Shown here: positions 17,929 through 27,003 of the stretch, one piece after another | Layout: every line of letters begins with the position of its first letter | Numbering within the stretch: position 1 is the stretch's first letter | Source of the DNA: Eledone cirrhosa | Lineage: Eukaryota | Direction: 5' to 3' | DNA: 64,000 bases | Assembly (NCBI GenBank): GCA_964016885.1 | Contig: OZ024747.1 | Coordinates: forward strand, 26,412,001-26,476,000 | The notes under the pieces: model-generated | The model's input: the letters and a program-made list of their open reading frames with translations, nothing else | The model's database searches: none | Told to the model about the DNA's origin: nothing | Program-made: the position numbers and the translations under genes

Positions 17929-18136
17929 ATATATATATATATATATATGTAGATAAATCTACCAAGAGTTTACGGTAGTGTCCAATCCGTATGAAGAACT
18001 CAATGTATTCCGGATATCATGGAAAGAAGAGATGTAATGAAAAATCACTTTCGGTGAAAGATAAACGGTATACAGAGTCAAGATAAAATATTAAACAAAT
18101 AATGAATAAACAATTCCTTATATTAAACAAAAAAAG

Positions 18137-18290
18137 TTCATTATTTAACGATCGTTTCTAGGATATATATGTGTTAGAGTTGGCATGCATATTCAACAGA
18201 TCTATGTACAAAATTATACAAAATTATACAAACTATCAAGATTAAATATACATACCAACACATATATACGCCGTCTTCAGAAATAATGAA
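18137..18290 (-). ncRNA. Type I hammerhead ribozyme (mirror copy of 25708-25861)
   Basis: Reverse complement of 25708-25861. Confidence 0.8.
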
Positions 18291-20632
18291 ATATATTTAT
18301 TGATAATAACAACAATTCAAACTTTCAGGTCCGTTTGGGAACAAAATTGACCAATGAAAATACAAAAGGTTTAATGCAGTTCGGTGTGTGTATATACATG
18401 TAACAACCCTTACACATATTTTACAAAAATGTATGCACAACCTGTATACGCATACAAAAAGGATGGATGCAAATACAAAATTTCAAGGTTAATGTCTCTG
18501 TAAGTTTATAATGCACAGATAAGATGCGTATAGATACATAAATATGAAATAAGTGTATACACATATTCTCATACTAACACATATCCGTACAATCACACAT
18601 ACACGCGCGTATATGCATAAACATACACATAAACTACGAACATACAAACACACACACACCCCCACTCACATATATATATGTGGATATAAAATCCTAAGCA
18701 CATGGATATTAATTCACTCACATAAACACTGGCACACACATTTAGATAAAGATACAGAAATTAGGTGGGAGGGGGGGGGAGAGGTCAGTATTCAACGGTT
18801 TGGGCTGACTGCTTAATATAGATGTATCTATAAACTAAGAAAATAAAAAATAATAAATAATAAATAAACATTAAAAAGGAAAGAAAAGAAAAAGAAAAAA
18901 GAAAAAAGAAAAAAGAAATATATCAAGAAAATATATATATATATATATATATATATATATATATATATATATATATATATATATATATATACACACACAC
19001 ACACACATATATATACATACACATATATAAACACATACATACATATACACACATCCACACTTAGAACATACATACACACACATATATAAACATATACATA
19101 TACACACTTACATACATATACACACATACATATAAATACACATATATATATACATATATATATATATATATATATATATATATATATATATATATATATA
19201 TATATATATACATACACTCATACATATACATATAATCACACATACTATATAGACACATATATATACACACATACACACACATATACATACACTTACATAC
19301 ATATATACATACAGATATACACATACATACCTATATATACACACAAATACATACAGACATATATACATACATACAGACAAATACTTACGCATCTATATAT
19401 CGGTATATACATACAAACACCACTACACTCTCACACAACTCAGACATACAAAGAAAAAGGTATATACCCATACACATATACATATACAAATAGAGAAACA
19501 TATATATATATATATATATATATACACATATATATATATATATATATATATATATATATATATATACATATACACACATACACACATACACATACTTACA
19601 CATACATACATGTACACACACATAGATATATATACACACATACACACATACACATACATATATAGTCATACACACACATACACCTACACGAACATACACA
19701 TACACATATACAAAGATATATATACACACACACACACACACATACACACACACACATATATATAAAAAAAAAATATAAAGATATATATATATATATATAT
19801 ATATATATATATATATATATATATATATATATATACATACACATACATACACACATACATAGACATATATGTACATACATACATATACATAGATACATAC
19901 ACACACATACATACATATATATATACACACATAGACATATACATACATACACTCACAACATACATACACACATATATACTCATACATAGAATTAGATATA
20001 TAATCATACATACATACGCACTTACATATACTCATATATACAAATACAAACGCATCCATATATGCGTATATACATAGAAACACCACTACACCCTCACCCA
20101 ACTCAGACATACAAAGAAAAAGGCATATACATATACATATATACACGCATTAATAGAGATATATATACACATATATATATATATATATATATATATATAT
20201 ATATATATATACACACATACACTTATATACATATACCTACACACACATACAACCATAAATACACATACAAACACCCACATATATATATATATATATACAT
20301 ATATATATATATACACACACATAAAAAACAGACATGCACATATATATATTTTTTTACACATATATATACATATACACACCCTCACATATACACACATACA
20401 CATAAGTTATATTATAATAATAAATAATATATATATACACATACATATATATATATATATACATATATACATATATATATATATATACACACATACGAAT
20501 ATAGACATATATAGACACATAGATATATATACATATATATATACACATACATATACACACACACACATATACACATTCACATATATATGTGTGTGCACAC
20601 ACACATATATATACTTACACACATATATACAT

Positions 20633-21987
20633 ATATCGTGATGACTGTCTTCTTCTTTCTAACAACCTTAGCCTTTCAGAAATTGAAAAAAACAAAAAAC
20701 ATATTAGAACTTTCCTTAAAGACTATTATAATCTTAATATTACTTTTGAAAAAACAAGTAAAGTAGTAAATTTCCTAGATATAACTTTAGATTTAGCTAC
20801 GGGTATCTACCAACCTTACCATAAACCAAACCAAAACTTACATTACATACACTCACAATCTAATCACCCTAAATCTATCCTTAAAAACCTTGCATATAAT
20901 ATATCACTTCTATAACGAAGCTCTAGATAGAAGTGGCCACAAAAATAGATTAGAATATATACCTTCTACTAAAAATACTGAAAGCATACAACCTAATATT
21001 ACCAACAAACACCAAATGAAAAGTACACACCTAAATGCCACCCACACTATACCCCAAAATACCAAATCTTCTAATATAAAGTATAGTAACTCTCAAAAAA
21101 CTACTTATCATACAACTCTAATAAATATTAATAATAAAACTCCTAATAAAAAGGATAAAACACCTAAATCTACAAATATAACTAAAAATGGTTGTGGTGA
21201 GATCATTAACATTAATCCTCCTAGTAAAAATCACGATACAACCTATAAAAATAATAAAAATAATAAACAACATAGAAACCGTAATAGACGGGTTACTTGG
21301 TATAATGCTCCATTTAATTTACAAATTAAGGATAATATTGCTAAAAAATTTGTTTATATCCTAGAGAAAAACTTCCCGCCAAACCACAAATACCATCAAA
21401 TCTTAAATAGGTCTACAGTTAAATTCTCATACTCTACAACAAATAACATAAAACAAAATATAAGTGCCTATAATGCATATAAATGTAAGAAAACCATAAG
21501 TATACCACCAGTACATCAAATTAACCATAATATCTCCTCAAATACAGAATTAACGAAAGGTTGTAACTGTAGAAACAAAGCAAACTGCCCATTAAAAGGG
21601 AATTGTCTTGTTAACAACATAGTCTATAAATGTAATGTTAAAACTAAAGATTCTATTTGCTCATATATAGGAGCTACCTCTAACAATTTTAAGACAAGGT
21701 TTAATACCCACAAGCATAGTTTTAAAAATGCCGCACTGGCTAATACAACATCTCTAGCAGAAAAAATCAATAGTTATAAAAATAAGAATATAGAATATGA
21801 TTTGACCTGGAGTGTGCTCAAAAGAGCCACCCCTTATCAAAATAATAGAAATGAATGTAGATTATGTTCCCAAGAACTATTTGAAATTATGAAATCTAAG
21901 GATATCCTATTAAATAAACGACAGGAATTAATTATATCGTGTAATCATAAACTAAAAAAAACATTTAAATATTATAAACCTAATTAA
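20633..21987 (+). pseudogene. PLE RT C-terminus/thumb + GIY-YIG endonuclease (Naiad-like), 5'-truncated, with a deletion/frameshift near 20910
   Basis: YRDD, VNFLDITLDL, YQPYHKPN..YIHSQSNHP, WYNAPF, ILNRSTVKFSYS, CNCRNKANCPLKGNC, NIVY...SYIGAT...FKTRFNTH, CRLCSQE, LLNKRQE. Confidence 0.85.
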
Positions 21988-24900: not shown

Positions 24901-25707
24901 ATGTGTGTATATGTATGTATGTGTGTATATGTATATGTTTATATATGTGTGTGTATGTATGTTCTAAGTGTGGATGTGTGTATATGTATGTATGTGTTTG
25001 TATATGTGTATGTATATATATGTGTGTGTGTGTGTGTATATATATATATATATATATTTTCTTGATATATTTCTTTTTTCTTTTTTCTTTTTTCTTTTTT
25101 CTTTTTCTTTTCTTTCCTTTTTAATGTTTATTTATTATTTATTATTTTTTATTTTCTTAGTTTATAGATACATCTATATTAAGCAGTCAGCCCAAACCGT
25201 TGAATACTGACCTCTCCCCCCCCCCCCTCCCACCTAATTTCTGTATCTTTATCTAAATGTGTGTGCCAGTGTTTATGTGAGTGAATTAATATCCATGTGC
25301 TTAGGATTTTATATCCACATATATATATGTGAGTGGGGGTGTGTGTGTGTTTGTATGTTCGTAGTTTATGTGTATGTTTATGCATATACGCGCGTGTATG
25401 TGTGATTGTACGGATATGTGTTAGTATGAGAATATGTGTATACACTTATTTCATATTTATGTATCTATACGCATCTTATCTGTGCATTATAAACTTACAG
25501 AGACATTAACCTTGAAATTTTGTATTTGCATCCATCCTTTTTGTATGCGTATACAGGTTGTGCATACATTTTTGTAAAATATGTGTAAGGGTTGTTACAT
25601 GTATATACACACACCGAACTGCATTAAACCTTTTGTATTTTCATTGGTCAATTTTGTTCCCAAACGGACCTGAAAGTTTGAATTGTTGTTATTATCAATA
25701 AATATAT

Positions 25708-25861
25708 TTCATTATTTCTGAAGACGGCGTATATATGTGTTGGTATGTATATTTAATCTTGATAGTTTGTATAATTTTGTATAATTTTGTACATAGATCT
25801 GTTGAATATGCATGCCAACTCTAACACATATATATCCTAGAAACGATCGTTAAATAATGAA
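25708..25861 (+). ncRNA. Type I hammerhead ribozyme with long stem II
   Basis: Stem I TTCATTATTT/AAATAATGAA (10 bp); CTGAAGA; stem II TATATATGTGTT-GGTATGTATATT...AATATGCATGCC-AACACATATATA; GAAA-C GATC G-TT. Confidence 0.85.
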
Positions 25862-27003
25862 CTTTTTTTGTTTAATATAAGGAATTGTTTATTCATTATT
25901 TGTTTAATATTTTATATATATATATATATATATATATATATATATATATATATATATATATATATATATATATATATATATATATATATATATATATATA
26001 TATATATATATATATATATATATATATATATTATTTATTAAAATAACAGATTAAAGTTTAAGCAAAGAATCGCTGCTTTCACCCTTAACGGGATCTTCTG
26101 AAACTAACAAAGTCAATCTGTAAACGCAGAAGTGGATATTTCAAAAAACGTAGCAACCGGAAGAAGACAGGAAGACGATACTTTGGTTCGTGGAAATGTT
26201 CCCTGGCAAAGAACAGGAAAAAACGAATATAATACGTCATTATTTGGAGCGATGAAAAACAATTACGCGCAAAGACAGAACCACGTTTATGGTATAAAAG
26301 AGGTCGTAGACTAATGTTCTCTTAGGTGGTTCATAGAGACGTTCTCTGGCAATGAACGAAAAAAACGAAGATAATACGTCATATGTGGAGCGTGGAGAAC
26401 AATTGCACGCAAATGGTATAGCAGAAGTCGTAGACTAAAATTCTAACTAGGAGACCGAATGAATCTCCGCTTCAGAGTTAAGAACAAAGTAAATAAATAC
26501 AATACAGAGGTAATAGAAATTAAATAAATACATACACGCATACAAATACGTACATACACAAGCATACGCGAAAACACTTACCATAGGTATACAAAACCAC
26601 GCACATATAAATATGTGTGTGTGTGTATGCGTGTATACAAATAAATAAATAATTAAATAAACGTATATAAATAAATAAATACGTATATAACAAGCGCACG
26701 CACATACCTACATGTAAATACACAAATGTTCGGAGACGTAAGTCAACCAAAACATGAAGTACACATATACACACACCCTACATACGTACGAACCTGCATA
26801 CTCACACAGACGCAAAACTCCCATACACATAACACAACCATATGTACCAGAATATATAAAAATTATACGCCATAACATATACAATCAAATATACGTACAA
26901 GAAGGTATACGTACCTTCACAAAACATACAGGTAATATATACTTACCTATGCGAATAAGTAATGGTATAAACAAAACATATACTTAGCTACCACATCAAG
27001 ACG

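Follow-up and report, generated by a model that had tools for sequence, protein, structure and literature searches.

Penelope-like elements (PLEs) of the Hydra clade contain a single ORF in which the reverse transcriptase (RT) is followed by a C-terminal GIY-YIG nuclease; they carry RWK and DKT motifs, a CxCx5C motif, no CCHH finger, CxxC and CxH motifs and a 3' hammerhead, and they target (TA)n (PMC8557442). Hydra elements are generally short, at <3 kb, a trait that is descriptive rather than a diagnostic motif; the 27 listed families measure 1.1 to 2.7 kb, with 3.0 kb for one counted together with its inverted copy (PMC8557442). Naiad elements, on the other hand, possess an N-terminal GIY-YIG nuclease with CCHH and CX2-5CxxC, without a canonical hammerhead, and their RT has a CxC motif, a DKA motif and an IFD in its N-terminal half (PMC8557442). 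An inverted arm with a tail is standard PLE anatomy, and the tails are described as 30 to 40 bp long (PMC8557442). In vitro work on an anole PLE showed that both strands are nicked and that the tail is defined by two RT start sites (PMC11167929). Penelope-borne microsatellites in penaeid shrimp (PMC7878876) and CR1-L3 microsatellite seeding in snakes (PMC6050309) have already been reported.

The window, that is, the whole 64-kb stretch of DNA analysed here, contains at 17949-25915 one Penelope-like insertion within a (TA)n tract, the left and right halves of which (17928-17948 and 25913-26031) adjoin the insertion at its two termini. The insertion is dead and of recent origin, and is composed of a 5'-truncated copy, an inverted 2.5-kb copy of its own 3' end and a 134-bp tail. 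The two 5'-truncated copies meet head to head at 20628-20636, where TA-rich microhomology is present. No further copy of the element was found in the 64-kb window.

tblastn of homologs located the 5'-truncated C-terminal part of the RT, from the YRDD catalytic motif onward, at 20634-20912 on the plus strand. By motif comparison, the end of the RT thumb, a linker, CxCx5C, a GIY-YIG nuclease devoid of the CCHH finger, CxxC plus CxH and the stop codon occupy 20908-21987 on the same strand. Near 20907-20912, a deletion of about 53 nt shifts the frame; the motifs across it are 38 aa apart in all 58 homologs with both motifs, compared to 61 nt here. Apart from the truncation and this one frameshift, the ORF has no in-frame stop. 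The low-complexity linker that precedes WxNxP has a length of 119 aa, versus 22 to 73 aa in 70 homologs, and remains an open frame; none of 5,000 base shuffles was free of a stop codon. Pfam returned no significant match on either ORF piece, and its GIY-YIG family matched another PLE of the window, not the element at 17949-25915. Argonauta hians was the sole animal named among the matches, at about 30% to the element's protein and at 68% to a LINE ORF at 425-2548, which makes an octopod host likely.

Because the nuclease is C-terminal and CxCx5C, CxxC/CxH, a 3' hammerhead and a (TA)n target are present without a CCHH finger, the element is assigned, on its motifs, to the Hydra clade of C-terminal EN+ PLEs and not to Naiad. 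CxCx5C occurs once, directly before the nuclease, and CxxC before the conserved E and CxH after the conserved N are invariant columns in alignment A1. The first-pass annotation had called the element a PLE, which is supported; its further description as Naiad-like was not upheld, given the position of the nuclease, the absence of CCHH and the presence of the hammerhead. The Naiad nuclease cysteine pattern was found neither in the query nor in any of 166 homologs, and the two cysteines found 8 residues apart in that nuclease stretch are not conserved. ADK[GA], a motif of the N-terminal half of the Naiad RT (a region truncated in the element), was present in none of 28 long homologs. The RWK/DKT region is also missing from the truncated copy; among the long homologs, RW[KR] was found in 17 of 28 and DK[TS] in 24 of 28. 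Domain order and motifs rule out membership in Naiad, Neptune, Nematis and Poseidon, and the CCHH finger found in the nuclease of Neptune, Nematis and Penelope-Poseidon is missing. In a quick tree the query fell within 61 rows of homologs with Hydra motifs (SH-aLRT 90), themselves selected with the query, and apart from the CCHH-type PLE of the window; this version included four L1-type proteins and left out named reference elements as well as five loci that had no usable translation from YRDD to the end or did not enter the tree (L001, L004 and L009 removed, L002 and L006 not included). A contig scan with a single protein gave no match, and a second one, based on alignment A1, returned 10 loci with the label of bacterial MAGs; these are distant relatives outside the family of the element and probably represent eukaryotic contaminant contigs.

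A type I hammerhead motif with a 10-bp stem I, a core at 25718, GAAA at 25840 and a palindromic stem III is present at 25708-25861 on the plus strand, and the motif scan recovered its mirror at 18137-18290 on the minus strand. None of 2,000 shuffles gave the motif, and the insertion has no CUGANGA in the sense orientation other than the core at 25718. Cleavage is predicted after 25851. Stem II measures 115 nt, compared to 12 to 31 nt in relatives, and folds at -40.5 kcal/mol in the sense and -18.4 kcal/mol in the antisense orientation (z -6.5). The hammerhead fold (-43.3 kcal/mol) lies 3.2 kcal/mol above the minimum-energy fold (-46.5 kcal/mol), and two extra bases precede GAAA; as modelled, the long stem II would constitute a natural hammerhead variant. 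No hammerhead was among the 150 of 159 Rfam matches listed, which were miRNA-type and other composition-driven matches below the gathering score. The distance from the end of the motif to the terminus is 54 nt on the right and 188 nt on the left. The core lies 3,731 nt past the stop codon, compared to 80 to 194 nt in all 9 fetched relatives for which downstream DNA was present, a count that leaves out L002, which ends at the ORF. Since the core lies near the stop in these relatives, the microsatellite DNA of our element is placed inside the interval from ORF to hammerhead. The hammerhead end is tied to the ORF by position, not by direct sequence similarity.

The left arm (18083-20627, minus strand), an inverted 5'-truncated copy of the 3' UTR, aligns to the right arm (23507-25915, plus strand), which stops 134 nt short of it with TAT microhomology to the target. 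The alignment of 2545 bp on the left with 2409 bp on the right comprises 2353 identical columns, 4 substitutions and 12 indels, and every difference falls in a microsatellite or homopolymer context. All 813 aligned columns of the unique terminal part agree, the longest exact stretch noted is 697 bp, and the sole difference is a 3-bp poly-C indel. The low-complexity parts align at 2404 bits with 93% identity, whereas controls reached at most 508 bits against the rest of the window and 473 to 564 bits in all 20 block shuffles, which rules out chance alignment of low-complexity DNA as the cause of the mirror. These results agree with the first-pass annotation, according to which ~23505-25914 is mirrored at 18083-20628 and the left arm carries an extra ~130-bp 3' extension, found here to be 134 bp (17949-18082). 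The same annotation stated that the arms differ mainly in (TA)n lengths; by manual pairing, five of seven matched pure tracts do differ and two are equal, but the largest difference is a 106-bp block confined to the left arm. Part of the repeat-length differences may be read-consensus errors. The arms offer an internal clock, with 0 substitutions in 813 unique bp, yet altered lengths in those five tracts.

The 106-bp block (20450-20555, minus strand) is flanked by a 23-nt direct repeat and absent from the right copy; it is ancestral, because a diverged relative is present at about 23420-23470 (23442). The 134-bp tail, a 3' extension of the inverted arm only (minus strand), is likewise absent from the right copy, and its sequence has no second occurrence in the window. 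By analogy with the anole element (PMC11167929), the tail likely marks a more distal start site of reverse transcription, and the two RT start sites would then lie unusually far apart. At 134 bp, it greatly exceeds the 30 to 40 bp described for PLEs, which counts against this account. With the tail and the block specific to the left arm and a 2879-bp spacer specific to the right copy, neither arm, judged by its sequence, can have been copied from the other in its present form. Since neither derives from the other, the template probably carried the long UTR, and both arms would stem from a longer common template. An assembly artefact or a later DNA-level fold-back duplication could also leave near-identical inverted arms in repeat-rich DNA with mostly repeat-length differences, which are typical of long-read consensus error; however, abutting arms without arm-specific sequence would then be expected, instead of the spacer, left-only tail and ancestral block that were found, and both ends are PLE-type termini in (TA)n. 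We therefore regard such an origin as highly improbable. The same arm-plus-tail anatomy is seen in a neighbouring family of the window (17721-17927, 59618-59822 and 59869-60109), and three fetched relatives (L001, L004 and L007) have inverted arms.

Measured from the stop codon to the right end, the 3' UTR is 3928 bp, or 3.9 to 4.2 kb versus the usual 0.2 kb, so that the UTR alone does not match the shortness of Hydra elements. Its first 1 kb is a diverged tandem array of five to seven ~140-bp copies of a unit made up of the end of the ORF and the first bases of the UTR (21929-22958, plus strand), recognised by self-BLAST, alignment and nhmmer. The copies are 68 to 81% identical and are interrupted by a TG/TA block at 22443-22562. 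The nhmmer profile of this repeat gave five matches at E<1e-13, all of them units used to build it, and no match beyond 22958. A TG/TA/TATG microsatellite body follows at 23100-25060 (plus strand), with strand polarity (681 TG/GT versus 31 CA/AC), 8 tracts of pure (TA)n and an internal duplication of ~675 bp that is older; the final 0.8 kb is mostly unique. Alternating purine-pyrimidine repeats occupy 43% of the UTR, compared to 13% of the window outside the element. TA/TG blocks resembling those of the UTR occur elsewhere in the window, for instance at 47352-48437. The ~3.9-kb length expected beforehand was confirmed, but the UTR is not microsatellite-built throughout, TG/TA microsatellite accounting for only ~1.9 kb plus a 120-bp block. 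The proposal that the low-complexity DNA travels with the element is supported by its location between ORF and hammerhead and by the longer template shared by the arms. The UTR appears to have grown via old tandem duplications and slippage, and the element likely brought kilobases of microsatellite into the site.

Two further accounts of the long UTR were weighed. It could be a peculiarity of one donor locus or small sub-lineage, most family members having shorter or different UTRs; a single copy was seen in 64 kb, the UTR resembles ordinary host low-complexity DNA such as that at 47352-48437, and all measured relatives have a short UTR. Against this, the internal duplications are 20 to 30% diverged, the ORF lacks an in-frame stop and the arms show no substitution in unique sequence. 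These observations suggest that the long UTR outlasted many rounds of transposition under selection on the ORF, and we consider a donor-locus peculiarity unlikely. Carriage of the long UTR may extend to the whole family, of which one copy was seen. Alternatively, a Hydra ORF fragment with ~1 kb of UTR could have been fused to an unrelated, non-autonomous, hammerhead-ended and microsatellite-rich element that alone forms the arms. The arms are confined to 23507-25915, the window contains many short hammerhead-like elements that target (TA)n, and degenerate core-like words at 22062 and 22353 (75 and 366 nt past the stop) mark a possible place of an ancestral hammerhead. These words have no convincing stems, and relic hammerheads in the ~140-bp repeats were rejected, since two core-like words were all that was found. 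Moreover, neither a junction nor a (TA)n boundary lies between the two parts, the arm start at 23507 falls inside one continuous TG-polarised tract, arm sequence has diverged relatives in the spacer, and the ORF part would be left without the hammerhead that Hydra families carry. Such a chimera is, in our judgment, very unlikely.

We thus consider it quite probable that the locus is a single dead Hydra-clade insertion in (TA)n whose ~4-kb repeat-rich UTR was likely already present in the copied RNA. Earlier, in the source lineage, the UTR would have expanded by tandem duplication of the ORF end (the copies now 20 to 30% diverged), by further internal duplications and by host-type slippage. The GIY-YIG nuclease would then have nicked both strands of a (TA)n tract, each nick priming reverse transcription on long-UTR RNA from one source element. 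The first cDNA, about 2.7 kb long, would have begun at the distal start and yielded the tail; the second, starting 134 nt upstream, would have extended about 5.3 kb to the RT catalytic motif, although this order of priming is presumptive. Joining of the two incomplete cDNAs head to head would give the present structure, the right copy losing 53 nt and 106 nt via template jumps or later slippage and the microsatellite lengths of the two arms drifting apart afterwards. Constraint appears to be limited to the ORF and the 3' hammerhead end.

The feed-forward idea of the first-pass annotation, taken in a strong form, is that the element generates new (TA)n targets for itself and thereby materially drives the microsatellite excess of the genome. 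The insertion holds 18 (TA)n tracts of at least 12 nt (642 bp in total), its UTR is enriched in alternating repeats as given above, and Hydra elements target (TA)n. Nonetheless, pure (TA)n tracts are found at 2.26 per kb inside versus 2.11 per kb in the background, so targets are probably not limiting; none of the 18 internal tracts carries an insertion, as the collinear arms indicate; and one copy is present in 64 kb. This engine therefore seems doubtful. Equally doubtful is the broader picture of an active Hydra family with a UTR swollen about twentyfold, TA/TG in a paired stem II and 7 to 18 new tracts per insertion, building microsatellite load. Should the whole family share the long UTR, uniform shortness would no longer hold for the Hydra clade; repeat libraries would then split such families at the microsatellite and score their UTRs as simple repeats, and part of the "simple repeat" fraction of these genomes would be retroelement cargo. 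The element provides a direct test case for microsatellite seeding by a (TA)n-targeting element; on the evidence of this window, it is a single well-preserved case of PLE behaviour that is already known. Its family may already be contained in the Octopus vulgaris repeat library (PMC13282606).

Compared to described systems, the unusual aspect is the size of the UTR and of stem II, as arms and tails are already known for PLEs. No report of Hydra PLEs with a microsatellite UTR of several kilobases was listed in literature searches. The shrimp Penelope (PMC7878876) and snake CR1-L3 (PMC6050309) cases share simple repeats copied with a retroelement and later length change, whereas the portions of those reports considered here contain neither a repeat UTR on the kilobase scale in a clade that targets (TA)n nor a test of whether an element supplies its own targets. 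Poseidon PAc of Anolis carolinensis (PMC11167929) similarly nicks both strands at AT-rich sites and has a tail corresponding to the interval between two RT starts; however, it represents another clade, with a hammerhead that overlaps the start of the ORF and a short tail, compared to 134 bp here, and by eye no Hydra-type ORF start was seen in the 134-bp tail. Naiad elements, including Naiad_Obim and Naiad_Ovul, share the (TA)n target, inverted truncated copies and tails, but differ in nuclease placement, CCHH/CX2-5CxxC and hammerhead absence. The closest system is the Hydra clade (PMC8557442), represented by Hydra-1_Obim and Penelope-13_HM, which shares the RT with C-terminal GIY-YIG, the motifs, the 3' type I hammerhead and (TA)n; the entry for Penelope-13_HM includes an inverted, 5'-truncated copy attached to it, like the arm described here. 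By eye, the translation of Hydra-1_Obim, from Octopus bimaculoides, aligns motif for motif, yet its protein and hammerhead sequences differ clearly, which makes it a separate family. Its 3' UTR is about 205 nt by our count, compared to 3.9 to 4.2 kb here, and the published Hydra hammerheads have a short stem II, whereas that of our element spans 115 nt.

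The left arm of the Penelope-like (PLE) insertion (18083-20627, minus strand, 2545 bp) aligned to the right arm (23507-25915, plus strand, 2409 bp) with 2353 identities, 4 substitutions, and 12 indels, confirming the inverted mirror arm proposed in the first-pass annotation. In the unique terminal part, 813 of 813 aligned columns were identical, with one 3-bp poly-C indel besides. The low-complexity parts matched each other at 2404 bits, whereas nothing in the remainder of the window scored above 508 bits and 20 block shuffles gave 473 to 564 bits; thus, the similarity reflects descent, and composition was ruled out as its source. 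The proposal that the arms differ mainly in (TA)n lengths held only in part: all differences lie in microsatellite or homopolymer context, but the biggest is a 106-bp block, restricted to the left arm, between 23-nt direct repeats. The predicted extra 3' extension of about 130 bp was also present, as a 134-bp tail (17949-18082) that continues beyond the 3' end of the left arm only and has no second occurrence anywhere in the window. (TA)n adjoins both outer ends of the insertion, and no further copy of the element was found in the 64-kb window. Any RNA transcribed across both arms (18083-25915) would be expected to pair into a double-stranded stem of ~2.4 kb, on which RNA editing or small-RNA silencing might act.

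A type I hammerhead motif lies at 25708-25861, with a mirror copy at 18137-18290. It comprises a 10-bp stem I, a core at 25718, a 115-nt stem II, GAAA at 25840, and a palindromic stem III, the dimer-forming kind known from metazoan PLEs (PMC4209133); shuffling the terminal 816 nt 2000 times never produced the motif. In modeled folds, stem II reached -40.5 kcal/mol as sense RNA versus -18.4 as antisense (z -6.5; 0 of 300 shuffles). G-U pairs account for this difference between the strands, which suggests that selection has acted at the RNA level. Since the hammerhead fold (-43.3) lies above the minimum-energy fold (-46.5) and two extra bases precede GAAA, self-cleavage is a prediction only.

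That the low-complexity DNA travels with the element, as the first-pass annotation had it, is supported by three lines of evidence. First, the sole sense-strand core in the insertion lies 3731 nt past the stop. In all nine fetched relatives with downstream DNA, the core lies 80 to 194 nt past the stop and stem II spans 12 to 31 nt; by our own count, the distance is ~127 nt in Hydra-1_Obim, a Hydra-clade family. Second, the tail and the 106-bp block are confined to the left arm and the 2879-bp spacer between the arms to the right copy, so that neither arm can be derived from the other; because a diverged relative of the block lies at 23442, the right copy must have lost it. Third, the first kilobase of the 3' untranslated region (UTR) is built of tandem repeats, ~140 bp each, of the open reading frame (ORF) end (68 to 81% identical), and its microsatellite body holds an older duplication of ~675 bp. 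Because these duplications differ from one another much more than the arms do and the ORF has no in-frame stop, the long UTR was probably kept through many rounds of transposition. Altogether, the repeat DNA appears to have been carried by the copied template, as judged from one insertion in which the link between ORF and terminus is positional.

The spacer begins at the reverse transcriptase (RT) catalytic motif YRDD (20634); hence, the copy is 5' truncated. Two conserved motifs are 38 aa apart in 58 of the 58 homologs having both but 61 nt apart in the element, indicating a frameshifting deletion of ~53 nt near 20910. The second reading frame, which extends to a stop at 21987, encodes in order a low-complexity linker, a CxCx5C motif, a GIY-YIG nuclease that lacks the CCHH finger, CxxC, and CxH motifs in turn. 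The linker measures 119 aa, compared to 22 to 73 aa in 70 homologs, and is open in frame, as were 0 of 5000 shuffles. A representative protein search returned 6525 proteins at E ≤ 0.001; the top match was a 161-aa fragment with 62% identity, and the other matches listed showed 32 to 48%. Among 28 long homologs, DK[TS] occurred in 24, RW[KR] in 17, and ADK[GA] in none. The copy is dead, since it is truncated and frameshifted with both termini facing outward.

As to insertion, purified protein of an anole PLE nicks both strands at AT-rich sites, extends them, and uses two reverse-transcription start sites, the interval between which becomes the tail; hammerhead cleavage is not required (PMC11167929). 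By inference from that system, two nicks in a (TA)n tract would have primed two cDNAs. One of ~2.7 kb, from the distal site, would have given the left arm with its tail. The second would have begun 134 nt upstream at a TAT microhomology and run ~5.3 kb to YRDD, the two being joined head to head at 20628-20636. Repeat lengths may later have drifted by slippage, or may partly reflect consensus error. The right copy bears both larger deletions.

The first-pass annotation had further proposed that the element feeds itself by making new (TA)n targets. Within the insertion lie 18 (TA)n tracts of ≥12 nt (642 bp in total), and alternating purine-pyrimidine repeats occupy 43% of the UTR versus 13% of the window once the element is excluded. 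However, pure (TA)n tracts are about as dense inside the insertion as outside it (2.26 versus 2.11 per kb), so targets are unlikely to be limiting; moreover, none of the 18 internal tracts carries an insertion. Background (TA)n may itself be partly PLE derived. We consider self-feeding doubtful.

Several PLE-like ends occur in the window. At least four different ones line adjacent (TA)n tracts in 17593-28305, an insertion-hotspot pattern. A short repeat family (17721-17927, 42190-42333, 59618-59822, and 59869-60109), always next to (TA)n and with inverted arms and a ~78-bp tail restricted to one arm, resembles PLE 3' ends that are heavily truncated and keep a partial hammerhead. A second family has two ~1-kb copies (26031-27004 and 27195-28190, minus strand; 942 identities, 35 mismatches) and further ends at 28199-28276 and 34202-34322; it contains TA/TG-rich DNA together with internal repeats of 140 bp, and its hammerhead-like end has A at core position 4. 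The identical 5' breakpoint of the ~1-kb copies suggests a nonautonomous element or a local duplication. A decayed canonical PLE (44338-45900) with a CCHH-type GIY-YIG (Pfam E 9.5e-05), a CA-rich UTR, and a hammerhead at 45776, about 0.3 kb past the coding part, provides an in-genome short-UTR comparator. A near-perfect ~380-bp palindrome (36417-36795), with a hammerhead motif per strand (36560 minus, 36644 plus), is a head-to-head pair of PLE ends, and more hammerhead-like motifs lie at 33650 (minus; 11-bp stem I), 43651 (plus), and 29464 and 46676 (plus, weak). Other features include an L1/Tx1-type RT with zf-RVT (422-2548, minus; 708 aa open; best named match an Argonauta protein, 68%), its partial second copy (7934-8991, minus), and between them a frameshifted LINE (3602-7487, plus) that we take from its features to be RTE-like. 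An ORF fragment (31357-32208) adjoining a 200-N gap (32006-32205) resembles, in its motifs, the C terminus of the non-LTR elements that encode a restriction-like nuclease. Tandem arrays comprise a 64-bp minisatellite (54573-56272; 26.6 copies, 97% matches) and an 86-bp array (37419-37798).

Compared with known systems, the element belongs, by its sequence motifs, to the Hydra clade. In Naiads, the nuclease is N-terminal and contains CCHH, and canonical hammerheads are missing, whereas the Hydra clade is described as having a C-terminal nuclease, CxCx5C, CxxC/CxH, RWK, and DKT, no CCHH, a hammerhead, (TA)n targeting, and a length generally <3 kb (Craig et al. 2021, PMC8557442). The earlier Naiad-like assignment was not borne out: all three testable Naiad features were absent, and every testable Hydra motif was present. 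In a quick tree of query-selected homologs, with no named references included, the element nested among Hydra-motif homologs, far from the window's CCHH-type PLE; its grouping with an Argonauta hians protein had weak support. The 68% match of the window's L1/Tx1-type RT to an Argonauta protein makes an octopod host probable. Hydra-clade PLEs also occur on ten contigs labeled as bacterial MAGs (L001-L010), where they show hammerheads, inverted arms, and (TA)n ends; these contigs are likely eukaryotic contamination.

The inverted arm with tail is already known anatomy, described in the Fig. 2 legend of PMC8557442; it recurs in the neighboring family (17721-17927, 59618-59822, and 59869-60109), and L001, L004, and L007 have inverted arms. 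In shrimp, Penelope elements carry simple repeats that are later elongated (PMC7878876), and in snakes, CR1-L3 LINEs seed microsatellites (PMC6050309). Penelope consensus lengths reach 7.6 kb in Penaeus monodon (PMC3124438), and recent Penelope insertions in Octopus vulgaris, 329 in number, total 1,795,539 bp, an average of about 5.5 kb (PMC13282606). Octopus may thus commonly harbor long PLEs, which may already be within that paper's repeat library. Our literature search found no account of a multikilobase microsatellite UTR in the Hydra clade. The true oddities are the 3' UTR, ~20 times the clade norm, the 134-bp tail, and the hammerhead with a 115-nt repeat-derived stem II. Hydra-1_Obim, from Octopus bimaculoides, can be aligned to the element by eye, yet it is a different family.
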